From assembly GCF_008065095.1 (NCBI RefSeq), contig NZ_CP042911.1:6570001-6602000 (forward strand): DNA of 32,000 nucleotides. The letters are read 5' to 3'. Source of the stretch: Gemmata obscuriglobus (GTDB taxonomy: Bacteria > Planctomycetota > Planctomycetia > Gemmatales > Gemmataceae). Shown here piece by piece: positions 4,022 through 18,330 of this stretch; positions within the stretch are counted from its first letter, which is position 1; each line of letters starts with the position of its first letter. The notes under the pieces are model-generated. The model saw only the letters and a list, made by a program, of their open reading frames with translations, had not been told where the DNA came from and searched no databases. Position numbers and translations under genes: made by a program.

Positions 4022-5351
4022 GCTCCGAGCATTGAACTCGCCCACCAGCGACTCCACCAGACGGCTGGTGATCGGCAGCCCCGCTCGCCGATACCGCGGG
4101 TAGTCCATCCGCCCTTGGTTGTTGCCCAAGTAACTCAGCGCCGCGGCAACCACCCGGCGCGGATCCCGCGCGGGCAACTCCTCACCCTCGGGTACCGGTG
4201 CCACACGCGCCTGGCACGAGGCCCGGGTCACCAGCACCTCGCGCACCCGCACCTGCCAGCAGGCCCGCATCCACGTTCGGTACCGCGACCAACGGTCCGC
4301 GTCGGTGCCGCCCATTGCCCACGCGGCCCCGTCACTCACGGACGCCTTGCGCGGGGCTCGGTAGAAGCCCCGCTCCTGAGCTTCGGCTGCCATCATCGGA
4401 CCGAACAGGTGGCTCGCGGCCATGCTCGCCACACACGTCCGCACCAACCGCACCGGACCCGGCCGCGGCGGTGGTTCCGCCGCACGCGCGTCGGCAGCCC
4501 AAGTTTCTCGGCCTGGCGGTGGTTCACCGGCCCACCCGTTGAGTTGGTGCTTGAGGCGCTGCACCCGGCGCGGTTCGTCAAACGCCGGCCCGGGTTCGGG
4601 TTGCGGATCCTGTCGGGACGGGGTGCTCTGGAGAGTGACCAGCGCCGCTACCTTATGTTCTTTGCCCTGGGTCTCATACACCCCCGGTCCCTGCCCCGCA
4701 GGTGCCCGCCATCAACCTCGACGGCCAACCACCGCCGGTACCATGTCCACGCGCACCGGCAACTCCCGGCGCCGCTGTTGGACCACCTTCTGATCCCGCT
4801 GGCGAGCCAACTCGTTGCCGATCTCCTGGGCGATCCGCTGGACCTGAGAGCAACCTGATGTTGATCCGGGCCAACGGAAGCGCGAAGGTCGCTTGTGCGG
4901 CCGAGTTCAACCGCCTCATGGCGACCGCGATAGTTATGGCCGTCCAGTCGCAGGGCATTACGCGGGGGGGAGAAAAGTCCCGCCGGCATTGGGGGCAGTG
5001 GCACACCGGTTCGTGGAGGGTGAGGACGTGCCCGGTGTCGACGGTCAGCGGTCGATCCTCTTAATCGACCGTCGCCACCGTGCCGCACTGGTGACACGGC
5101 GGCACGGTGGCGACGGTACGGTACTGGACCCGCGCGGTGAGCATGACCACAGCCAAGCCCTCGACCAGCGCCGCCGCCACCCGCTCCATGTCCGCGAAGT
5201 CCAACTGCTGGGCATCCACGCCCTCCGCGGTTCGTTGGGCTGCGATTGTTCCCCAGCGCGACGCCAACGCTCGCAACTCCGCCAAAAACTCAGGTGGCAA
5301 CTTGACCGATGGGCATTGCTCGGCCCGCCTTGCACTTGTGACGCGCACCAA
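4022..5351 (-). pseudogene. ISKra4-like DDE transposase, decayed (multiple frameshifts and a premature stop)
   Basis: Homology has to be followed through at least 4 frame changes. Pieces in order: ..PPCHQCGTVATVD-stop (ORF 5061..5351); RPLTVDTGHVLTLHEPVCHCPQCRRDFSPP; NALRLDGHNY; MRRLNSAAQATFA; VQRIAQEIGNELARQRDQKVVQQRRRELPVRVDMVPAVV-stop; AVEVDGGHLR; then ORF 3662..4681 with ..KASVSDGAAWA.. and ..ALSYLGNNQGRMDYPRYRRAGLPITSRLVESLVGEFNAR. These are typical ISKra4-group zinc-finger and C-terminal motifs. Confidence 0.7.
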
Positions 5352-5631
5352 CGACCTGTTTCATTCTCTTTGCTATCGCATACCTTTTGCAATTGCAAAC
5401 CGCGTCTTGCCCTCGGATATGACTTGTTCGGTTTCCGAGACTTGTCAGGCTCGCTTACGGGTGTAGAATCGAGTATAGGAATGTGGTAATTGTCTCCGAC
5501 AGACGCCACGGTGTTCGCGGCCAGTTTCTTCAGAATCCAGCCGCGTTTGGACCGGATGGTTTTTAGTTGTGTTTGTGGAAATCCAAAGCAAAGGATTTCT
5601 ATCCAACAATATGCTATCTAATTTCAACAAA

Positions 5632-5705
5632 GCGCGTTTAGCTCAGTTGGCTAGAGTACCACATTGACATTGTGGGGGTCACTGGTTCAAGTCCAGTAAC
5701 GCGCA
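5632..5705 (+). tRNA. tRNA-Val (anticodon GAC)
   Basis: Hand-folded cloverleaf. Acceptor GCGCGTT/AACGCGC plus discriminator A; D arm GCTC-AGTTGGCTA-GAGT; anticodon stem CCACA/TGTGG with loop TTGACAT; variable loop GGGTC; T arm ACTGG-TTCAAGT-CCAGT. No encoded CCA. Confidence 0.93.
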
Positions 5706-5710
5706 CTCAA

Positions 5711-5764
5711 CAAACCGGCCGCAAACCCAAGCGAAACAAGGGTTTGCGACCGGTTTGTTTTTTT
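5711..5764 (+). terminator. Rho-independent terminator of tRNA-Val
   Basis: 18-bp stem CAAACCGGCCGCAAACCC (5711-5728) / GGGTTTGCGACCGGTTTG (5740-5757) with one mismatch, an 11-nt loop, followed by seven T (5758-5764). Confidence 0.8.
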
Positions 5765-5835
5765 CGGCTGGCAAACCTGAGGGGATCGGAAGTGTCGTCG
5801 TAGTTAGCCTTTGGGTAACGCCTGAAGTGCGGCTA

Positions 5836-7097
5836 ATGAAGAAGGCGAAGACCGCGGAGCCGACGATCACCCACGACCAGGCGCCCGACCGGACGGCGTG
5901 GCCCGAGTGCGGGCACCCGGTGACTGCCGACTACGCCAACCGGCGGACCGTTCACACCCTGGCCGGGATCACCCGCCTGAACCGGACCATCCGCCGGTGC
6001 CACCACGTTGAGTGCGGGTTCCACAAGCGGCCGTACCGGCCCGAAGCCGAGGGGCCCTTTTCGCTCCCGCGGCACGAGTTCGGGCTCGACGTGGTGGCCC
6101 TCATCGGGCGGTTCCGGTAGGCCGAGCACCGGTCCGTGCCCACCTGGTGGGGCGCCACGTGCAGGTGCCCGAGCGACCGTGACCAATCTCCTGGACCGGT
6201 ACGACGAACGGCTCGCCGTGTCCCCCGCCGATGACCGCCGTTTGTGCCAGTTCCACTGCCTGCGCGAGGCCGGGCGGCCCATCGGCACGCCAAGAAGGAG
6301 TACAAGAAGAAGGCGCGCGGGGGCCGGGCGATCGAGCGACAGGCGGACGGGCGAACGGGGGCCGAGGACGAGGTGATCCAGAGGTATTGCTCGGCCGTGC
6401 GGAGCGCGTTGACGGACGACGGTCGCCCGCCGTTGGAGGCGTCGGGGCGGAAGTTGCACGCGCGGTTGTCGGCCATCGGGAACAGCCTCGACCGGGTCGA
6501 GGAAAAAAGGGGCTCCCGAGGGAACTCCTGCAGTTGAAGGGCACGATCGCGAAGGGCTTGAGAGCGACCGCCACGTTGTGGCCCGCGATCGGTGTGGCGT
6601 TCGGGTGGTTGCATCAGGCGGCCCACGTGTTGGGTGTGGAAGGCACATCCGGTGCGGCGATCCGCAAGAAGCTGGGCGGCTTGTTGGGGGCCATGCCGCG
6701 GCATCGGCGTTCGGCGGGCACGTTGAAAGATGCGGTGTCTCACTTCGTAAAGGTCACTCGGAGTTACGGGCCGGGCTTGTTCGTGTGCTACGACGTGGCG
6801 GGCCTGCCGGGGACCAACAACGACCTGGAGCAGTTGTTCGGCGCGCACCGGTATCACGAGCGCCGGGCGAGTGGTCGCAAGGGCGGTTCTCCGGGAACCG
6901 TGCTTCGTGGGTCGGTGCGGGTGGTGGCCGCATTGGCGACGCGGACGGGGGAGGTGACCGCGACCAATGGAAGCGTGCTCGTGCCGATCGGGGGGCGACG
7001 CCGGCGGCGGGTCGAACGAAGGCGGTTCCGCCGGAACCCGGAGGAATACCTCAAAGCCCTGGAAAACAAGCTCATCCAGTCAGGTTTGCCGTCCTAG
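5836..7097 (+). pseudogene. Second, unrelated transposase gene, decayed (nonsense codon, frameshifts, probable internal deletion)
   Basis: Starts MKKAKTAEPTITHDQAPDRTAWPECGHPVTADYANRRTVHTLAGITRLNRTIRRCHHVECGFHKRPYRPEAEG..GRFR, then TAG at 6118-6120 followed by AEHRSVP. It continues in other frames: TVTNLLDRYDERLAVSPADDRRLCQFHCLREAGRPI; HAKKEYKKKARGGRAIERQ..VIQRYCSAVRSALTDDGRPPLEASG; then ORF 6231..7097 with ..HFVKVTRSYGPGLFVCYDVAGLPGTNNDLEQLFGAHRYHERRASGRKGGSPGTVLRGSVRVV. I recognise a zinc-finger N-terminus and a transposase-type tail, but I cannot name the IS family with confidence. Confidence 0.6.
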
Positions 7098-10896: not shown

Positions 10897-11318
10897 GGTC
10901 GCTCTCGGTGTCAGTCGGTGCGCCGGCGGTCGGCGCCGCGGGCGCCGACGGCAGGCGGAGATCGCCAGGTCGTCCGGTCGCGCCACAAGGCGCGCGGTGT
11001 GCCGAACCGATCGCACCTGTTTGAGACAGTCCGTTGCCTGAATTAACTAAAATACGGGGAGCTGTGTGGGCGTCCGGCTCGAGCGCGGAATGATCACCGC
11101 TGGTCACAGCGCGTTCGCTTTGCGGTGACCATTCCGCCGCACCGCCCGGGCGGCGTGGTGACCGGATCGAATGCCTCGTCGAACACCCCGAGCGTGTGCG
11201 CGTTGCGGTTACCGCGCACCACCATCACCTTCTCGGCCCCGACGTACCGGCCGCGCAACGGCCAGCCTCGGCGGGTGCGATCCTCGCGCCGCGCCCCGGC
11301 ACCGAAGGCGGATAAACG

Positions 11319-11367
11319 CGTTCGGGGCCGGCGAACGGGATCGTGTCCCGTTCGCCGGCCCCGAACG
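11319..11367 (-). terminator. Strong hairpin closing the minus-strand gene string
   Basis: Perfect 22-bp stem CGTTCGGGGCCGGCGAACGGGA (11319-11340) / TCCCGTTCGCCGGCCCCGAACG (11346-11367) with a 5-nt loop, 27 nt downstream of the ABC ATPase stop (11394-11396). Only a weak T-rich tail (GCGTTTAT) follows on the minus strand. Confidence 0.6.
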
Positions 11368-11393
11368 TGCCGCGTCGTATCGAGCCGACGGGG

Positions 11394-12335
11394 TCAGCTC
11401 GTGATGCCCTTCGTGATGTTCAGGAAGATGTGCTCGATGTTGATCTCTTCCTCGCGGAAGCTGTGCAACTTGAACCGCTCGGCGATGAGCCGCTCGGGAA
11501 TGAAGCTGCCGTCGTCCAGCCCGGCCCGCAGCGCCACGCGGACCAACCCGGCCTTCGGGTCCACCGCCGCGGACGACACCTCTTTGTAGGTGCCGAGCTT
11601 GTTGGCGGCGTCGGGGTTGCGGTCCCCCACCGACACCAGGAACACCCGCCCGCCGCGGATCTTGCGGACCTGCTCCTCGGCCGCCTCCACGCTGCCGTTG
11701 AAGATCAGCTTCCCGCGCTCGATGATCCCGAGCGTGTTACAGATCTCCGCCAGCTCCGGGAGGATGTGCGACGACAGCATGATCGTCTTGCGCTCCTGCC
11801 GGAGCCGCTTGATCAGCTCGCGCATCTCGATCCGCGCCCGCGGGTCGAGGCCGCTGGCGGGCTCGTCGAGGAGGAGCACCTGCGGGTCGTGCAGCAGCAC
11901 GCGGGCCAGCCCGAGCCGCTGCGTCATCCCGCGGCTGAGGCTCGTGACCAGCGCGTCCCGCTTGTACCCCAGGTCCACGTAGTCCAGAACCTGCGCCACC
12001 TTCTTCCGGCGCGCCTCGCCCTGGATGCGGTACATGGCCGCGAAGAACTCCAGGTACTCGGTCACCTTCATGTCGTCGTACACGCCGAACGCGTCCGGCA
12101 TGTACCCGATGGCCCGGCGGATCTCCGTGGACCCGGTGTAGATCGAGTACCCGCACACCGTGGCCTCGCCCCAGCTCGGGTTGAGCAGCGTGGCGAGCAT
12201 CCGCATGGTGGTGGTCTTGCCGGACCCGTTCGGGCCGATGAACCCGTACACGTCGCCCGGCTCCAGCTTCAGCGACAGCCGGTCCACCGCGAACAGCTCG
12301 CCGTACTTCTTGGTCAGGTCGCGGCACTCAATCAT
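11394..12335 (-). CDS. ABC transporter ATP-binding protein (ABC-2/NatA-like with C-terminal extra domain)
   Basis: ORF 11394..12335. Walker A GPNGSGKTT, Q-loop, signature LSRGMTQRL, Walker B LLLDEPASGLD, H-loop SSHIL. Confidence 0.93.
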   Translation of the reverse strand: MIECRDLTKKYGELFAVDRLSLKLEPGDVYGFIGPNGSGKTTTMRMLATLLNPSWGEATVCGYSIYTGSTEIRRAIGYMPDAFGVYDDMKVTEYLEFFAAMYRIQGEARRKKVAQVLDYVDLGYKRDALVTSLSRGMTQRLGLARVLLHDPQVLLLDEPASGLDPRARIEMRELIKRLRQERKTIMLSSHILPELAEICNTLGIIERGKLIFNGSVEAAEEQVRKIRGGRVFLVSVGDRNPDAANKLGTYKEVSSAAVDPKAGLVRVALRAGLDDGSFIPERLIAERFKLHSFREEEINIEHIFLNITKGITS

Positions 12336-12342
12336 TGGGAAA

Positions 12343-12373
12343 GTTCCAAGTTCCAGGTTCCAAGTTCCAGGTT
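12343..12373. repeat. Left heptamer array of the four-helix-bundle cassette: GTTCCAA GTTCCAG GTTCCAA GTTCCAG GTT
   Basis: Read directly. Begins 7 nt from the ATG (12335) of the ABC ATPase gene. Inverted partner at 12815-12842. Confidence 0.9.
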
Positions 12374-12389
12374 GGCGGGCCGCGGGGAA

Positions 12390-12794
12390 CTATTCGCTGT
12401 CGTTCGGTGCGTACTTTCGACCGCCGAGATCTGAACGTTCGAGGTAGCGGATCAAACCCACCAGCAGTCGGGTCGTGTCACGCGCCAACGCGGTCATTCG
12501 CCGGAACGTCATCTCATCGATGTACTCGGCATCGAGCGCGGCACAAAGTTGCGACCGCACCTCACCCGCCGAGCCTTTCGCAACGTACAACAACTGCCGA
12601 AATTCAGCGTTCCCGTCTCGCTCGTAGCGCTCGGCAATGTTCGACATGACCGAGATCGAAGCACGCCGGATCTGGTCTCGAAGGGCGAAGTCACGCGCGA
12701 ACGGCTCTCCGCGAGTCACTTGGTAAACGGCCCTGTTCAATTCACGCGCCTTTTTCCAGCCTTCGGTATCTTCGAACCGGGTGATTGCGCCCAT
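12390..12794 (-). CDS. Four-helix-bundle protein (23S rRNA intervening-sequence protein family, TIGR02436/PF05635-like; same fold family as DGR Avd)
   Basis: Internal ATG 12794 of ORF 12390..13061, with SD GAGGAA upstream. 134 aa: MGAITRFEDTEGWKKARELNRAVYQVTRGEPFARDFALRDQIRRASISVMSNIAERYERDGNAEFRQLLYVAKGSAGEVRSQLCAALDAEYI.. This matches the family signature (W..A..L...vY..T..FP..E.f.L..Qi.RAa.Si..NIAEG....s..EF..fL..A.GS..E). Confidence 0.88.
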   Translation of the reverse strand: MGAITRFEDTEGWKKARELNRAVYQVTRGEPFARDFALRDQIRRASISVMSNIAERYERDGNAEFRQLLYVAKGSAGEVRSQLCAALDAEYIDEMTFRRMTALARDTTRLLVGLIRYLERSDLGGRKYAPNDSE

Positions 12795-12814
12795 CGGTTC
12801 CTCTGTCTTTCCAC

Positions 12815-12842
12815 TTGGAACGTGGAACCTGGAACGTGGAAC
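12815..12842. repeat. Right heptamer array: TTGGAAC GTGGAAC CTGGAAC GTGGAAC (inverted copy of the left array)
   Basis: Its reverse complement GTTCCAC GTTCCAG GTTCCAC GTTCCAA matches 12343-12370 at 25 of 28 positions. Its last base is the first base of the complemented TAG stop (12842-12844) of the upstream gene. Confidence 0.9.
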
Positions 12843-15196
12843 TACCGAACAGGCAGGTAAAACCGGACCCACGTTTCCTGGCGGCCGGTGCCCGGCAGCG
12901 GCTGGCGGGCGCCGCTCCCCGGCAGCCCCTTCAGCCACACCCGCGACGGCGAGTTGGGGCCGCTCAGCACCTCTTCGGCGGCGCCCGGCGGCGTCGCGAC
13001 CCGGCCCACCACGATGACCTCGTCGCGGACGTGCTGCCCGTGGTACTCGGAGAACCGCCACGACTGGTCCAGCCGGCGCAGCGACGCGTTCCGCGGCACC
13101 ACGCCCTCGTCGTTCCGCAGCGCCCCCTCGTGGAACAGCAGCCCGGTGAGGGGGAGCGGCCCGGTGTACACCGTTTGCTGTTGCAACTGTCGCTCCACGT
13201 TCTTCTGGCCCGGCCGGTCGGCGTACGACTGCACCCGCCGGAGCAGTTCTTCCAGTTTGGCGTTACCGCGGAGCCACTCCTGCGTGCTCTCGCCCTGAAC
13301 CATCACCAGCCGCACCGTGCGGCCGCGCGTGATGACGCCGCCCGGCAGCGGGTACGCCTGCCCCGCGTAGAACGCGACGCAGTCGGTCAGTTCGGGCACC
13401 GGCAGGTCGTGGCGGAACGTGCCGATCGCCCGCGAGCGGTCCCCGGGCGGGTGAACCAGGTTGGAGGTCACCGGCGCGGGCGCCCCGGGCGCGCCGGTCA
13501 GTTTCGCCGACCAGTTCGCGGAGAACGCCTTCGTGGACCACACCTGAATCGGCACGCCCTCCAGCCCCTCGTCGCGCCGGGGGTACCGCCGCCGGGTGAG
13601 GCTCGCGCGCCCCGCCCGCGGGGCGCCGAACCCCGCCACCGCGGTTCCCTCGGGGAGTTCCTCCGCGGCCCAGCCGTCGCCCGGCGTCAGCCCGACCGAG
13701 TAGGAGTCGATGCGGGGGCTGAACACCGTAAACCACGTCGAACCGTACACGCGGTCCGAAGCCGGGTCCACGTCCACGATGTCGAGCTTGTTCACCTTCA
13801 GGTCGCGCCCCTTCACCGCGGACGCGGAGACGTACGCCAGCACGCTCACCGTCAGCACGATGATCGGGAACGTGACCCAGGTCAGCTCGAGCCGCCCGAA
13901 CACGCGCTTCAGGACGTAGTATTCGACCGGCCCGACCAGCAGGATGTACAGCGCAATGAGGAGCGCCACCCAGCCGAAGGACACCACCGGAACGCCGTCG
14001 AACGCGTCGTTGTGGCCCCGCACCGCGACCGCGATCTCGTCCTCGTCCTCCGTCATGCTGCCGGCCGACCGGGGCTTGCCGTCGCCGCCGCTGGACGCGC
14101 GGCTCGCGCCGGCGTCCCGCAGCAGGAAGTCCCAATAGTCGGCCCGGGCGGCGAACTCCGCGAACTGCGGGCCGTCGAGGTCGAACGCCACTTGGGTCAC
14201 GCGGCCCAACCCGAGCGGCGCCTGCACGACGACCGCGGGCCGCTCTTCGTTCGCGACCGGCGGCGGGCTGAGCACGCGGGCGGGTTTGCCGGGGCGGGCC
14301 GCGAGGTTCGCGACCGGGAACGCGCCGCCGCGCCCGCCGAGCGTCCCGCTGGCGGAGTTCTTTTCGCCCGCGGGCCACACCAGCGCGACCGCGGACACGT
14401 CGCGGGTCGGCGCCTCCGGCCGCACCCGGAACGGGAGGAGCGGGTCCATCGCCGGGAGCGACGCCACGACCGGCGCGTTCGCCCCGACCGACGTCACGAC
14501 CCGCCCGCCCCGGCGCACCCATTCGACGAGCGCCTCGCGCTTCTTCTGGTTCTGCGGGGTGGCATCCGGCGCGAAGAGTTGCTTCACGAAGTCGGCGGCG
14601 CCGGTACCGAGCACCACCAGGTCGGCGCCGTCGTACCCGTACCACCGGTCGGGGAGTTGGGCGACGGTCGCGATGTGCGTGAAATCCACGCGCCCGGCCC
14701 GGAGCGGTCCCGAATCGGTGGCGCCGGCGGGCCGCGGCAGCTCGAACTTGGGCGCCGTGCCTCCCAGCGCGAGCACCACGTATTGCAGCGATTCGCGCAC
14801 CCGCGGTTTTACCCGGAACGGCTCGGACAGGGCCGAGCCGCCCTTCGCCCGCACCCAAACGGTGACCTCACTCGCGAGGCCGTTGGGGCGGACGTACCCG
14901 ATCGCGGCACGGTCGGTCGCCAGGTCCACCGGCACGACCGAGGTCACGGTCACCTCGTCGGGATCGGGCGCCTCGATCACCACCTCGGCCGGATCGGAAC
15001 CTGCCCCGGTCACCTCGAAATTGACGTACACCGGCGCCCACGCGCCGAACTTGGCGATAAACGTGTCGTCGCGGCCGCTGGGGAGCCCGACCGCGGCGGC
15101 GGTGATCTTCACACCGTCTTTGGCGGTGGCGGTCGCGGCGCCGAGGAGGAACACGAGCAGCGTCGCGAGGGCACGCACCACAGTCGCCGTTGGCAT
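12842..15196 (-). CDS. 784-aa secreted/membrane protein of unknown function (signal peptide, large N-terminal exported region, two central TM helices, large C-terminal region)
   Basis: ORF 12842..15457. The likely start is ATG 15196 (purine-rich AAAGAAAGAAG upstream), giving the signal peptide MPTATVVRALATLLVFLLGAATATA. TM pair ..VVSFGWVALLIALYILLVGPVEYYVL.. and ..LTWVTFPIIVLTVSVLAYVSASAV... The segment ..LQYVVLALGG..GADLVVLGTG..LVEWVRRGGRVV.. recalls GATase1-like/ABC-auxiliary (GldG-type) folds; that link is inference only. Confidence 0.75.
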   Translation of the reverse strand: MPTATVVRALATLLVFLLGAATATAKDGVKITAAAVGLPSGRDDTFIAKFGAWAPVYVNFEVTGAGSDPAEVVIEAPDPDEVTVTSVVPVDLATDRAAIGYVRPNGLASEVTVWVRAKGGSALSEPFRVKPRVRESLQYVVLALGGTAPKFELPRPAGATDSGPLRAGRVDFTHIATVAQLPDRWYGYDGADLVVLGTGAADFVKQLFAPDATPQNQKKREALVEWVRRGGRVVTSVGANAPVVASLPAMDPLLPFRVRPEAPTRDVSAVALVWPAGEKNSASGTLGGRGGAFPVANLAARPGKPARVLSPPPVANEERPAVVVQAPLGLGRVTQVAFDLDGPQFAEFAARADYWDFLLRDAGASRASSGGDGKPRSAGSMTEDEDEIAVAVRGHNDAFDGVPVVSFGWVALLIALYILLVGPVEYYVLKRVFGRLELTWVTFPIIVLTVSVLAYVSASAVKGRDLKVNKLDIVDVDPASDRVYGSTWFTVFSPRIDSYSVGLTPGDGWAAEELPEGTAVAGFGAPRAGRASLTRRRYPRRDEGLEGVPIQVWSTKAFSANWSAKLTGAPGAPAPVTSNLVHPPGDRSRAIGTFRHDLPVPELTDCVAFYAGQAYPLPGGVITRGRTVRLVMVQGESTQEWLRGNAKLEELLRRVQSYADRPGQKNVERQLQQQTVYTGPLPLTGLLFHEGALRNDEGVVPRNASLRRLDQSWRFSEYHGQHVRDEVIVVGRVATPPGAAEEVLSGPNSPSRVWLKGLPGSGARQPLPGTGRQETWVRFYLPVR

Positions 15197-15237
15197 GTCG
15201 GTCTCAGCTTCTTTCTTTACCCCGGCGGGGGCAAGAC

Positions 15238-15564
15238 TCACGGCTTGGCGGCGGCGCACGCGCACGGCGCCCGACCGCACTTCGGGCACCCGGCCCCGTA
15301 CTTCCGTCGCACCGCGTCGTCGAGGTCCACGCCCGCGATGTTGGCCAGCGTGGCCAGCCACGCCAGCACGTCGGCGAACTCGAGCGTCAGGTTCTCGGGG
15401 TCGGCGGCGGGGTCGCGGAGCGCGGCCGACAGCTCGCCGACCTCCTCCATGAACCACATGAACGTCCCTTCGATCCCGCGGCGCGCGTCCTTCGCGCCGA
15501 ACAGGTCGCGGATGCGGGCCTGCACCGCGGCGAGGGTCATCGGCGTTGGCGTTGGGTCGGTCAC
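15238..15564 (-). CDS. MazG-like nucleotide pyrophosphohydrolase domain protein (small all-alpha NTP-PPase)
   Basis: ORF 15238..15564 (GTG start; ATG 15540 is an alternative). ..TLAAVQARIRDLFGAKDARRGIEGTFMWFMEEVGELSAALR......LEFADVLAWLATLANIAGVDLDDAVRRKYGAGCPKCGRAPCAC carries the EExxE-type metal motif and the Cys-rich tail typical of the family. Confidence 0.85.
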   Translation of the reverse strand: MTDPTPTPMTLAAVQARIRDLFGAKDARRGIEGTFMWFMEEVGELSAALRDPAADPENLTLEFADVLAWLATLANIAGVDLDDAVRRKYGAGCPKCGRAPCACAAAKP

Positions 15565-15673
15565 AAACCAGATTCTACAGGGGGCCGGAGAATGCGGCAG
15601 CCGGGCACTCAGATGTGATACGCTGGGCGGGAAATGAATGTTCTACGCGGGGGAGTCGAATGTCGCGGCTCTG

Positions 15674-15839
15674 AGTCTCAAGTCGTCGGGTCCGAAAGCC
15701 AGTCGTTTCAAGTTCCAGGTTCCAAGTTCCAAGTGGAGTCACCAGCGACACGAATCGCCGGCGCTTGTGACGAGCGGGGTTCCGACTTGGAACCTGGAAC
15801 TTGAAACGACTGGCTTTCGGACCCGACGGCTTGAGGACT
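15674..15839. repeat. Cargo-less palindromic element with the same GTTCCAR heptamer core: about 54-bp stem, 57-nt loop
   Basis: 15684-15727 (CGTCGGGTCCGAAAGCCAGTCGTTTCAAGTTCCAGGTTCCAAGT) is the exact reverse complement of 15785-15828. Pairing extends outward through one T-G wobble and one bulged G to 15674/15839. That covers two of the three bases (15838-15839) of the TAG stop codon (15838-15840) of the histidine kinase gene. The loop contains a second small stem, GTCACCAGCG/CGCTTGTGAC. Confidence 0.9.
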
Positions 15840-18330
15840 ACCCACAAGGCAGTTCGAGCCGGAAGCACGCTCCGGGCGCCCCGTCCGCCGGCCGGTACGC
15901 AACGGTCCCGCCGAGCACCTCCGCCCACTGTTTCGCCAGCGCCAGACCGAGCCCGGCGCCGCCCGCGGTCGTGTCCGCGGCCGCGCCGCGGCGGAACGGC
16001 TTGAAAATCGCCCTCCGTTCGCCCGCCGGGACGCCCGGCCCGCGGTCCTCGACTTCGAACGTGACACGGCCCGCCCCGCCCGCCTGCGCCCACAGCCAGA
16101 TCCGCTTGTCCGCCGCGTCCCGCGCGTACTTCCGCGCGTTGTCGATCAGGTTCCCGACGATCTGCTGCACCATCACCGGGTCGGTGCTGAGTTCCAGTTC
16201 CGGCGGCAGCGTGGAGACCACCACGAGTTCGCGCCCGTCGGCCGCGACCCGGTCGGCCCAGGTCTCCTTTAGTTGGTCGAGCAGTTCGGCGGCGCGCACC
16301 GGCTTCAGGTCGCCGTTCTTCCGGCGCTTTTCGAGCCGCGCGAAGTCCAGCACGTTATCGACCAGGCGGTGCAGCCGCTCCGATTCGACCGCCAGCGTGC
16401 GGAGGTACTCCTGCCGCTTCGCCTCGTCGTGAATCATCCCGCTCGTGAGCAGGTCGAGGTACAGTCGCAGCGACGTGAGCGGCGTGCGCAGCTCGTGCGT
16501 GACGGCCGACACGAACCGGATGCGCCGCTCCGCGAGGTCGATGAGCGACCACCCGCTCAGCCCGACCGCCGCGACGGCGACGAGCGCCGCCGCCCACGCC
16601 AGCGCCAGCCCGAGCCGCAGCGCGGTCCAGTCCCCGGGCGGAAGTTCGGGCTGCGGGCCGGGGTCGAGTTGAACCGGGAGCGCGGTCATCGCGCGCCCCG
16701 GCTGGACCCCGTCCGGGCTCTTCACCGGCACGAGCGTCGCGCCCGGGAACTGGTCCTTCACCTCGTCCTTGAGAAGTGCCCCGAGCCGGGGCCAGTCGAG
16801 GACCACCCCCTGATAGACGGTGCGGCCGTCGAGCTTGGCGACCCGCATCAGCACGAGCGTCTCGGTGCCGTCCGCCGCGGTGAGCCACTGCGGCCGCATC
16901 GAACCGAGGTGAATGTTGACGACCGGCGGCCCTACGAGCCAGTTTTGGGCCGCACCGTTCGTCAGCGCGTTGCCGAAACCGTTCGATTGACCCGGGCGCT
17001 CCTCGCCGACCGGGGCGGAAGCGCGCGGCCCGCAGCTCGCGCCGCCGGCGATGCTCCACGCCGCCGCGAGCAGCGGGTTCCGTGCCGCTTCCGCGCGGCA
17101 CCGCTCCTCGACCGCGTCCAGGCACCGGCGCCGCTCCAGTTCGATCCGGAGGGCCGCGAGCCGCTCGGTAATTGGGCCTCCGCCGGCCCGGTCGCCCAGT
17201 CGCTTCTGCAACGCGCCGGCGTCCTTGGCGAACTTGGCCTGGTCGAGTACCTCGCGGAGCTTGTCGAGTTCGGCTATCGCCTGACTGAGCGAAGTGCCCT
17301 TCTCGCTGTTTTCGTTGCCCACAGCCGGCGAAACGGGAACGTCACTATTCCGCACGTCGTTGTTCTGGAGCGCGCCCGGATAGTTCTTCCCGTACATCGG
17401 GTCGGCGCCCGCGCCCTTCGCTTCTTGAGTCGCCCGCTGAATGGTTTGCGCGCGGTTCCAGAAGTCGTCGCGCCCGCGGTCGTTGTCCGCAACGCGGGAA
17501 GCGCCTCTGGTGTTTGTCGCCTGCGGTCCTCCCGCGGCCGTTGCGCCCGGAGGTCCGGCCGGGGCCTGCGCGGCCGAAGGGGCGCCCTCGCGCGGCGCTG
17601 CCGACGGAAGGTTGTTGCCGCGGCCGGCCGCGGCCTGCGGCTCGCGCCGCGGCAGTTCCCACCCGAAAAAGCGGCGGGCGTCAGTGGCGTCTGGGGCGGC
17701 GGTCGTCGGGGTGCGTTCCGGTGGCGGGGGCGGCTTCGGGGCGGACGTCGGCGCGCCGGTCGCAACCGACGCCGCCGACCGCTGCCACGAATCGGTGGTG
17801 AACAGCGGGGCCGCAAACGGAAGCGAATCGACCGGAATCGCGCGGTCGCGCGCCGCCAGCAGCCCGCAGGTCGCGGCGGCGGGGTACTTCGCGCGGAGGT
17901 CGCTCAGCGCCAGCGCGCGGTCGGGGGAGTCGTTCCGGAGCGGGAGGTCGGGCCAGACCGAAGCGACCCGCTCGCGGGCGTCCGGGGGGAGCACCTGGGG
18001 CGAGTCCCACCCGGTCGCGGGGTCGAGCTGGACGTGCAACTTCATCCAGTCCGGGAGCTGCGCGCCGAGCAGCGGAGTCGGGCCGGCGGAACTGTAATGG
18101 TGGAACGGCCGGCCGTCCTCGCCGCCGAGTTGGAGCAGCACGCGGCCGTCGAGCTGCCAGAGCGCGACGCGGAGCTTGTTCTCGAGCTCGGCTTCGGCGG
18201 CGGCCGCGCGCTGGGCGGTCTCGACGCGCAGCGCGACCACCGTGAGCCAGCCGAGGCCGGCAAACACGAGCGCTGTGACCAAGACGAACATCATCGGCCC
18301 GCCCGCCGGGCCGAGCAACCGCCGTGACAT
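15838..18330 (-). CDS. Sensor histidine kinase with a very large uncharacterised sensor region
   Basis: ORF 15838..18330. TM1 MMFVLVTALVFAGLGWLTVVAL, TM2 LRLGLALAWAAALVAVAAVGLSGWSL, H-box FVSAVTHELRTPLTSL, N box GNLIDNARKY, G boxes VEDRGPGVP and GGAGLGLALAKQW. Confidence 0.9.
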   Translation of the reverse strand: MSRRLLGPAGGPMMFVLVTALVFAGLGWLTVVALRVETAQRAAAAEAELENKLRVALWQLDGRVLLQLGGEDGRPFHHYSSAGPTPLLGAQLPDWMKLHVQLDPATGWDSPQVLPPDARERVASVWPDLPLRNDSPDRALALSDLRAKYPAAATCGLLAARDRAIPVDSLPFAAPLFTTDSWQRSAASVATGAPTSAPKPPPPPERTPTTAAPDATDARRFFGWELPRREPQAAAGRGNNLPSAAPREGAPSAAQAPAGPPGATAAGGPQATNTRGASRVADNDRGRDDFWNRAQTIQRATQEAKGAGADPMYGKNYPGALQNNDVRNSDVPVSPAVGNENSEKGTSLSQAIAELDKLREVLDQAKFAKDAGALQKRLGDRAGGGPITERLAALRIELERRRCLDAVEERCRAEAARNPLLAAAWSIAGGASCGPRASAPVGEERPGQSNGFGNALTNGAAQNWLVGPPVVNIHLGSMRPQWLTAADGTETLVLMRVAKLDGRTVYQGVVLDWPRLGALLKDEVKDQFPGATLVPVKSPDGVQPGRAMTALPVQLDPGPQPELPPGDWTALRLGLALAWAAALVAVAAVGLSGWSLIDLAERRIRFVSAVTHELRTPLTSLRLYLDLLTSGMIHDEAKRQEYLRTLAVESERLHRLVDNVLDFARLEKRRKNGDLKPVRAAELLDQLKETWADRVAADGRELVVVSTLPPELELSTDPVMVQQIVGNLIDNARKYARDAADKRIWLWAQAGGAGRVTFEVEDRGPGVPAGERRAIFKPFRRGAAADTTAGGAGLGLALAKQWAEVLGGTVAYRPADGAPGACFRLELPCG

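Follow-up and report, generated by a model that had tools for sequence, protein, structure and literature searches.

A 32,000-nt stretch of Gemmata obscuriglobus DNA (contig NZ_CP042911.1, positions 6,570,001 to 6,602,000; here called the window) carries a gene for a 134-aa four-helix-bundle protein that is enclosed by two inverted arrays of tandem heptamers and sits in the spacer between a gene for a 784-aa protein and a gene for an ATP-binding cassette (ABC) transporter ATPase. Sequence comparison supports the classification of this unit as a stem-plus-open reading frame (ORF) module of the type known from 23S rRNA intervening sequences (IVSs), here located in an mRNA intergenic spacer. In our reading, to which we assign a probability of about 0.6, the cassette was inserted into an operon spacer, and its stem is probably cut by RNase III and couples the adjacent cistrons; actions at the RNA and at the DNA level do not exclude each other. 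The module of heptamer arrays and four-helix-bundle gene is apparently widespread, occurring in several bacterial phyla, and apparently undescribed as such. No description of heptamer arrays together with a four-helix-bundle ORF, or of insertion at operon stop/start junctions, was found in the literature searched, and a full-text search for heptamer dimers returned only unrelated primer sequences. The family itself is already known from rRNA IVSs, from Avd of diversity-generating retroelements (DGRs), and from structural genomics, and heptamer arrays are known from Coxiella and Geobacter.

The unit was originally noticed in a reading of the sequence alone (the original prediction), which described two arrays of four heptamers around a 134-aa four-helix-bundle ORF with its own Shine-Dalgarno sequence. 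The coordinates and repeat counts were confirmed, as were the Shine-Dalgarno-like GAGGAA and the assignment of the ORF to PF05635 (Table 1). The arrays extend to an inverted repeat of 31 nt per arm, in which 28 of the 31 positions (90%) are complementary, and the arms lie 440 nt apart. The unit fills the gap between stop and start codon, as had been claimed: the TAG of the upstream gene (12842-12844) shares one base with the right array, and the ATG of the ABC ATPase gene (12333-12335) lies 7 nt from the left array. Because the 3' arm ends 7 nt before this ATG, the ribosome-binding region of the downstream gene is located in or beside the arm. The two-unit pattern GTTCCARGTTCCAR, with up to two mismatches allowed, gave 12 matches in the window compared with 0.42 expected, and none of 100 shuffles reached 12. 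Two array pairs were present in the window, and no repeats other than the heptamer arms bracket the gene. An identical cassette protein is encoded on CP025958.1 and in the UQM 2246 draft.

Table 1. Features of the cassette, its host genes and the ORF-less hairpin in the window
Feature	Position	Strand	Sequence or remark
Left array	12343..12370	+	GTTCCAA GTTCCAG GTTCCAA GTTCCAG; four GTTCCAR
Right array	12815..12842	-	GTTCCAC GTTCCAG GTTCCAC GTTCCAA; four GTTCCAN
5' arm (transcript orientation)	12813..12843	-	AGTTCCAC GTTCCAG GTTCCAC GTTCCAA GT
Shine-Dalgarno-like GAGGAA	12798..12803	-	3 nt ahead of the ATG of the four-helix-bundle ORF; from sequence
Four-helix-bundle protein gene	12390..12794	-	134 aa; PF05635 / TIGR02436
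3' arm	12342..12372	-	ACCTGGAAC TTGGAAC CTGGAAC TTGGAAC T
Upstream host gene	12842..15196	-	784 aa; no Pfam family
Downstream host gene	11394..12335	-	ABC transporter ATPase (GldA/DrrA-like)
ORF-less hairpin, left arm	15674..15727	.	inner part GTTCCAR heptamers
ORF-less hairpin, right arm	15785..15839	.	overlaps histidine-kinase TAG (15838-15840)

Folding of the sense (minus-strand) RNA, one of the checks proposed for the unit, paired the arms in both the minimum free energy and the centroid structure, with an arm-arm duplex energy of -44.6 kcal/mol. The surroundings were also as described originally: no rRNA was detected in the 32-kb window in an Rfam scan at gathering thresholds, and the genes called in the roughly 10 kb to each side included none listed with a reverse-transcriptase domain. 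The sole Rfam match above the gathering threshold in the window was a tRNA gene at 5632-5705 (RF00005, 67 bits). An E-value-based Rfam scan of positions 11000-17000 found no RNA family near the cassette and returned only generic miRNA-hairpin matches to an ORF-less palindrome.

The 134-aa protein matched PF05635 (1.8e-29, 102.5 bits, cut-off 33.8) and TIGR02436 (1.4e-30, 105.7 bits, cut-off 24). The conserved motif of the 23S_rRNA_IVP family is GxxRxxxSxxxNxxE (PMC3936711). In the corresponding segment of the window protein, ALRDQIRRASISVMSNIAE, the part RxxxSxxxNxxE is kept as RRASISVMSNIAE and the G of the motif is replaced by A; Asn52, Ala54, and Glu55 were invariant across 28 relatives. 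An AlphaFold2 monomer model consisted of four long helices (predicted local distance difference test score 86.4). Foldseek aligned it with Xcc0516 (2GSC) at template modeling (TM) scores of 0.79/0.90 and with BT_0352 (2RLD) at 0.73/0.83, and a phmmer comparison of the window protein with 2GSC gave 4.6e-10. The protein is thus predicted to have a four-helix-bundle fold like that of Xcc0516 and BT_0352. The solved homologues 2GSC, 2RLD, and 4DWL contain five chains each; the window protein was modeled as a monomer. No catalytic motif was recognized in the 134-aa helical bundle. Membership in a defense system was dropped as an explanation because neither the cassette protein nor the 784-aa protein had a PADLOC match. 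A phage origin was likewise dropped, given that tblastn found no match in 50,697 phage records and that IMG/VR held a single relative.

The site was compared across the Gemmataceae, in which orthologues of the upstream gene (about 790 aa) are widespread and always followed by the ABC ATPase gene. The order MazG / ~790-aa gene / cassette / ABC ATPase was found in Gemmata sp. SH-PL17, G. massiliana, and Frigoriglobus tundricola. Four more distant ~790-aa orthologues (50-58% identity; loci L160-L163) provided empty sites: all four had the order MazG / ~790-aa gene / ABC ATPase without the cassette. In L160, TGA is followed by 9 nt and the ABC ATG, in agreement with the earlier expectation that the genes would nearly abut without the unit. 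The spacers of L161 (46 nt) and L162 (101 nt) contain no arrays. In L163 (positions 5906-6006) the junction, again without cassette, contains instead a GC-rich palindrome (GGCGAGCGGGGGGCGTAAGCCCCCTGAT...) that is about 110 nt long and unrelated. Hairpin elements may insert preferentially at this junction. At every filled site the upstream stop codon is a TAG joined directly to the first repeat, and at all four empty sites it is a TGA. No target-site duplication was visible at filled-versus-empty junctions (Gemmataceae and, see below, Nostoc), and the cassette encodes no transposase, integrase, or nuclease.

Among the filled lineages, the cassette protein is 74-76% identical, and the two neighboring proteins are 63-68% and 87-90% identical. 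The ORF is intact in these lineages, and its ratio of nonsynonymous to synonymous substitution rates (dN/dS) is below 0.1. The arm units are heptamers in G. obscuriglobus, mixed 7- and 8-mers in SH-PL17, and octamers in both arms of the Frigoriglobus cassette (GTTCCAGA x2 / TCTGGAAC x4). Filled and empty loci together show insertion of the cassette, arms included, between the ~790-aa stop codon and the ABC start codon in an ancestor of Gemmata and Frigoriglobus. The cassette has evidently been inherited at this site since then, with the protein under purifying selection and both arms evolving in concert. The GC content at third codon positions (GC3) of the ORF is 0.63-0.69 compared with 0.83-0.98 in the adjacent host genes, though the ORF is syntenic across genera, and its synonymous sites are saturated, whereas those of the neighbor genes are not. 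Simple vertical inheritance does not explain so low a GC3 beside high-GC3 neighbors. In 10 of 10 other contexts examined, the GC content of the four-helix-bundle gene was also below that of the flanks.

The likeness to IVSs extends from the ORF to the ends of the unit. In Azospirillum lipoferum (L169), a four-helix-bundle ORF with inverted heptamer arms of the GGACRGA type lies within a confirmed large-subunit rRNA gene and thus belongs to a genuine IVS. The IVS of Coxiella is closed by a terminal stem of 28 bp, which RNase III cuts in the middle, and carries two or three tandem GACAGAT heptamers, the number depending on the strain (PMC4990558). With the ORF-containing IVSs of Coxiella burnetii, Leptospira, and L169 the Gemmata unit has in common the ORF family PF05635, once called "S23 ribosomal protein." It also shares their total length of 430-510 nt, their orientation along the host transcript, and the terminal tandem heptamers, a trait of the Coxiella and Azospirillum IVSs that is not part of the formal definition. 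Of the formal traits, the internal 23S_rRNA_IVP-family ORF (PF05635, TIGR02436) and the terminal stem of about 20-30 bp (31-nt arms, 90% complementary, paired in the fold) are both present. The location differs: IVSs lie in the 23S rRNA gene (helix 25 or 45), whereas the Gemmata element lies in an operon spacer between two protein-coding genes, with its arms abutting a stop codon and a ribosome-binding site. Excision by RNase III has been shown for IVSs, and its counterpart in Gemmata is an analogy. To judge by their repeats and ORFs, ORF-containing 23S rRNA IVSs are built from the same heptamer-array/four-helix-bundle module. The proposal of an IVS-like stem-plus-ORF cassette in an mRNA intergenic site was hence upheld by the ORF family, the stem of about 28 bp, and heptamers such as those of Azospirillum and Coxiella.

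Arrays around members of the gene family were analyzed in a sample of about 20 independent contexts. Strict run-based array detection proved too stringent for alternating or mixed 7/8-mer units and was therefore replaced by a lag-autocorrelation test covering lags 5 to 12. Upstream of the gene, 18 of 20 flanks had their best score at lag 7, and downstream 17 of 20 did (35/40 together); lag 8 was best in two upstream and two downstream flanks. Among control windows from the same loci, only about 2.5% reached the array threshold. Arms of this kind are thus not confined to the Gemmata gene but accompany other four-helix-bundle genes of the family.

In metagenomic relatives (41-68% identity), inverted tandem arrays flank the gene, and the repeat unit depends on the lineage. 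The arrays consist of GTTCCAA/GTTCCAGA in L131 (SdhA-like / cassette / SdhB-like), CTGGTKY in L132, CTGAGTS in L133 (cassette between secretin-like and ParA-like genes), GTTTCAR in L135, and GTTGCGG/GTTACAA in an acidobacteria-like group (L134, L136-L149). Further units are GTYCCAR in a Pyrinomonadaceae metagenome-assembled genome (RecG / cassette / RsmD), GGTCYAR in a BREX locus (BrxC/PglY / cassette / PglX), GTTCCAA in a MoxR operon (L008), and AGTCGRY, with about 18 units, in a Lentimicrobiaceae locus (L022). Distant members on annotated plasmids (27-41% identity) had flanking arrays in nine of nine cases, the Azospirillum L169 copy among them, with units including GGGRAAA, AGGGTGT, AAGGGAA (parA/parB), GGTTYAA, AGGGAAC, and GTCAGGA. 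Other host contexts of the family are cas6/cas4 and conjugative-plasmid genes. The two flanking arrays in Nostoc PCC 7120 are not complementary, and those of a Pseudanabaena galeata plasmid (L170; cas6 / gene / cas4), about 14 and 13 AAAGCYA units, are direct. Across the family, arrays have from 2 to about 18 units, usually 4-5. In 17 operon contexts, the cassette was co-directional with the upstream gene 15 times and antisense twice. The arrangement of one arm at the stop codon and the other at the ribosome-binding site recurred in most operon contexts. In L008 (positions 4782-6209), an upstream 475-aa ORF stays open across the 5' heptamer array and ends within the beginning of the four-helix-bundle gene. 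Here the insertion apparently shifted the stop codon of the upstream ORF, which thereby gained a tail encoded by the repeats.

The mobility suggested for the cassette was borne out for the family and less so for the Gemmata copy. Two Nostoc plasmids have in common a conserved operon of four genes, A to D (91-97% protein identity). A GTCAGGA cassette lies between B and C in the N. punctiforme plasmid (L172), and a GGGRAAA cassette, with 37% protein identity to that of L172, lies between C and D in the plasmid of Nostoc sp. ATCC 53789 (L164). The reciprocal empty junctions are TAG-GTT-ATG and TAA-TTT-ATG, with 3-nt spacers. Thus, these insertions were recent, included the arms, and occurred exactly between stop and start codons. 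In the acidobacteria-like group, the cassette occurs in both orientations between the same two convergent genes. The close relatives L142 and L147 have a 94% identical cassette in opposite orientations, and the cassette of L139 is inverted relative to L134, L138, and L141, with the breakpoints at the heptamer arms. Together these loci support mobility of the family over evolutionary time, whereas the copy at the Gemmata locus appears to be old and is syntenic across Gemmata and Frigoriglobus. Cassettes of the acidobacteria-like group contain, further inward, a second inverted repeat, and they include an AT-rich stretch that resembles a promoter.

Heptamer arrays also occur without the gene. 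In the window, 3 kb from the cassette, a hairpin at 15674-15839 starts in a histidine-kinase stop codon and lies upstream of the MazG-like gene. It has arms of 54-55 nt and a 57-nt loop, with a fold z-score of -14.5 and a duplex energy of -97.6 kcal/mol. In appearance it is a relative of the cassette arms that lacks the ORF. As a non-coding element with terminal inverted repeats, it fits the class of miniature inverted-repeat transposable elements (MITEs) and repetitive extragenic palindromic (REP) sequences; the cassette does not, because it encodes a conserved protein. The array pattern GTTCCANGTTCCANGTTCCA was found at at least 120 loci in one-genome-per-species contigs, compared with a chance expectation that we estimated at about 17. 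Among the matches listed, the loci span Acidobacteriota, Bacteroidota, Planctomycetota, Verrucomicrobiota, Proteobacteria, Chloroflexota, and candidate phyla. Of the 120 listed loci, 29 had an inverted array pair; 24 of these pairs had loops below 200 nt and thus are plain hairpins. No ORF remnants were detectable in the loops of solo hairpins among the 120 listed loci. A four-helix-bundle gene was present in three of the 120 (phmmer plus a hidden Markov model built from 120 sequences), and GTTCCAN arrays were dropped as markers of the gene on this account. Geobacter metallireducens has 53 inverted pairs of tandem 7-8-mers, for example at proB/proA and moaA/mosC, which were proposed to be IHF/HU sites (PMC2700814).

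The following working is envisaged for the cassette in its operon. No sigma-70-like promoter was found within the cassette, which is therefore probably transcribed along with the operon; a terminator search in the cassette gave a single terminator-like match, at chance level. In the operon transcript, the arms would pair into a 28-31-bp stem around the four-helix-bundle cistron, and the analogy to rRNA IVSs suggests that RNase III would likely cut it. Cleavage would part the upstream and downstream cistrons and free a small mRNA. The 5' arm begins in the stop codon of the 784-aa gene, and the ribosome-binding region of the ABC ATPase gene is covered by the 3' arm. The stem therefore probably ties translation of the ABC ATPase to cleavage or upstream termination, so that opening of the stem, whether by cleavage or by terminating ribosomes, would govern ATPase synthesis. 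RNase III cleavage and release of a monocistronic RNA in Gemmata are proposed purely by analogy.

Several observations weigh against RNase III-dependent coupling or limit its reach. The fold of the whole region was just modestly more stable than that of shuffled sequences (z = -2.2). Arm mismatches in 15 cassettes, read on the sense strand, showed no G·U excess (13 G·U, 18 A·C, 22 transversions); selection at the RNA level through wobble pairs was discarded for want of a signal (13 G·U versus 18 A·C), and the complementarity may be kept at the DNA level. The inverted cassettes of the acidobacteria-like group speak against an RNA-only view, and so do the direct arrays of Pseudanabaena, which make a stem impossible there. 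Two cassettes are antisense to their host operon, and a four-helix-bundle homologue on viral contig L173 lacks clear period-7 arrays. GTTCCAN arrays are not specific to the gene, most being ORF-less and spread over many phyla. The GC3 of the ORF stays far below that of its neighbors despite an apparently long residence. Finally, the generality of the module rests on the sample of about 20 contexts, which is not a census.

Some of these points would be expected if the cassette were transposon-like or invertible and its arms worked chiefly at the DNA level, as terminal repeats in insertion, excision, or inversion, with an incidental RNA stem and no specific RNA processing. The enzymes would then come from the host or act in trans, and the protein could be an accessory DNA-binding factor. 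The precise, arm-inclusive insertions with clean empty sites, the opposite orientations between the same genes (L142/L147; L139 versus L134, L138, and L141), the lack of a G·U excess in the arms, and the direct arrays in Pseudanabaena all agree with this explanation, and gene conversion between inverted repeats would produce the concerted change of the arms. We consider it possible, though not likely, since the cassette encodes no transposase, integrase, or nuclease, its 134-aa helical bundle has no catalytic motif, and no target-site duplication is visible. Furthermore, a 15:2 co-orientation with host transcription is not expected of a pure DNA element, the arms adjoin host stop and start codons, and RNase III is proven to cut the similarly designed stems of rRNA IVSs. 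The unit might instead be a domesticated regulator, its protein binding its own heptamer arrays in RNA or single-stranded DNA, autoregulating its synthesis, and controlling translation or stability of the ABC ATPase message. Strong purifying selection on the protein would suit such a role, and so would arms that lie where ribosomes bind for the ORF itself and for the gene downstream, as would arrays of mostly 4-5 units beside five chains each in 2GSC, 2RLD, and 4DWL, and an Avd homologue solved within the ribonucleoprotein reverse-transcriptase complex of a DGR (8UB7 and related entries). However, the host operons (sdh, BREX, cas, par, recG, pilus, ABC) serve unrelated functions, which makes a dedicated regulator of one of them unlikely, the empty sites indicate that the operon works without the cassette, and array length varies from 2 to about 18 units; a domesticated regulator is therefore improbable. 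Coincidence would mean that a REP/MITE-like heptamer hairpin was there first and that an unrelated small gene entered its loop later, the arms being no part of the cassette. ORF-less hairpins of the same heptamers are indeed common (15674-15839 and the 24 pairs with loops below 200 nt among the 120 listed loci), just three of those loci have the gene, the 53 pairs of Geobacter metallireducens are ORF-less, and rRNA IVSs lie at the tips of pre-existing helices. Yet the empty sites lack the arms as well as the gene, arrays surround nearly every sampled member of the family with a heptamer type that tracks protein similarity, and solo-hairpin loops contain no detectable ORF remnant, all of which leaves coincidence highly improbable.

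Beyond RNase III-dependent coupling, IVS-family four-helix-bundle proteins could be trans-acting partners of tandem-heptamer arrays that drive the spread, processing, or maintenance of their own cassettes and of ORF-less hairpins elsewhere in the genome. A probably pentameric protein may recognize cognate heptamers in RNA or single-stranded DNA, by analogy with RAYT proteins and REPINs. We regard this proposal as unlikely; if true, it would cover 23S rRNA IVSs, the short tandemly repeated repetitive (STRR) sequences of cyanobacteria, the "global regulator sites" of Geobacter, and the period-7 excess across phyla. In REPIN-RAYT systems, a small gene is flanked by inverted repeat copies that are also dispersed as ORF-less hairpins; RAYT is an HUH tyrosine transposase, and REP units are palindromes of 20-40 nt. 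The Gemmata-type unit differs in that its four-helix-bundle protein has no catalytic signature and its repeats are tandem heptamers, not palindromes. Correia elements of Neisseria and the enterobacterial repetitive intergenic consensus (ERIC) are short intergenic insertions with inverted repeats that fold in mRNA and can be cleaved by RNase III or RNase E. They are not known to carry an ORF, their arms are unique sequences, and each is known from one genus. The hairpin at 15674-15839 resembles them, whereas the heptamer arrays differ by spanning phyla and by having tandem heptamer arms. STRR sequences are intergenic heptamer repeats. Like the Geobacter arrays, they share with the present ones the tandem heptamers or octamers in spacers, often as opposite-strand pairs at variable distance, and arrays of this type surround the four-helix-bundle genes sampled from cyanobacteria. 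Descriptions of the Geobacter and STRR repeats speak of "global regulator sites" (IHF/HU) or leave them unexplained, and no link to a four-helix-bundle gene or an IVS was found in them. Avd is a four-helix bundle as well (model versus phage Avd 4DWL and versus 8UB7: TM about 0.68 by query, 0.82 by target). The Gemmata protein, in contrast, has no reverse transcriptase within 10 kb, no PF22296 match, and about 12-13% sequence identity to Avd; structurally it is closest to 2GSC and 2RLD, which do not belong to DGRs. The neighborhood that defines Avd, an adjacent reverse transcriptase with a template/variable repeat pair, was not found.

These results indicate that the ORF of IVSs, the "four helix bundle protein" genes scattered in operons (cas, BREX, plasmid partition), and intergenic tandem heptamers are one module. 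The three had been reported apart from one another and had lacked an explanation for decades. If so, annotations that take such genes as functional partners of their neighbors need rethinking; for example, 23S_rRNA_IVP genes in cas loci were reported as a functional association (PMC3936711). The cassette may also be a natural means by which the cistrons of one operon transcript are separated or coupled. It becomes testable by what agent a cassette of 0.5 kb is placed with such precision between stop and start codon, and why the period is seven.

The preference for this period was pronounced in 835 kb of sequence around GTTCCAN arrays (L007-L126), which contained 131 period-7 arrays, 54 of them of non-ascertained sequence; periods 5, 6, and 8-11 yielded 0-5 arrays each. 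The units of the period-7 arrays often alternate as 14-nt super-units. In L021, L103, and L125, inverted GTTCCAN arrays lie 0.7-1.4 kb apart around genes of ordinary appearance (a radical-SAM-like gene, a 148-aa ORF, and a PurU-like gene); either cargo of a different type is enclosed there or the two arrays are independent of each other.

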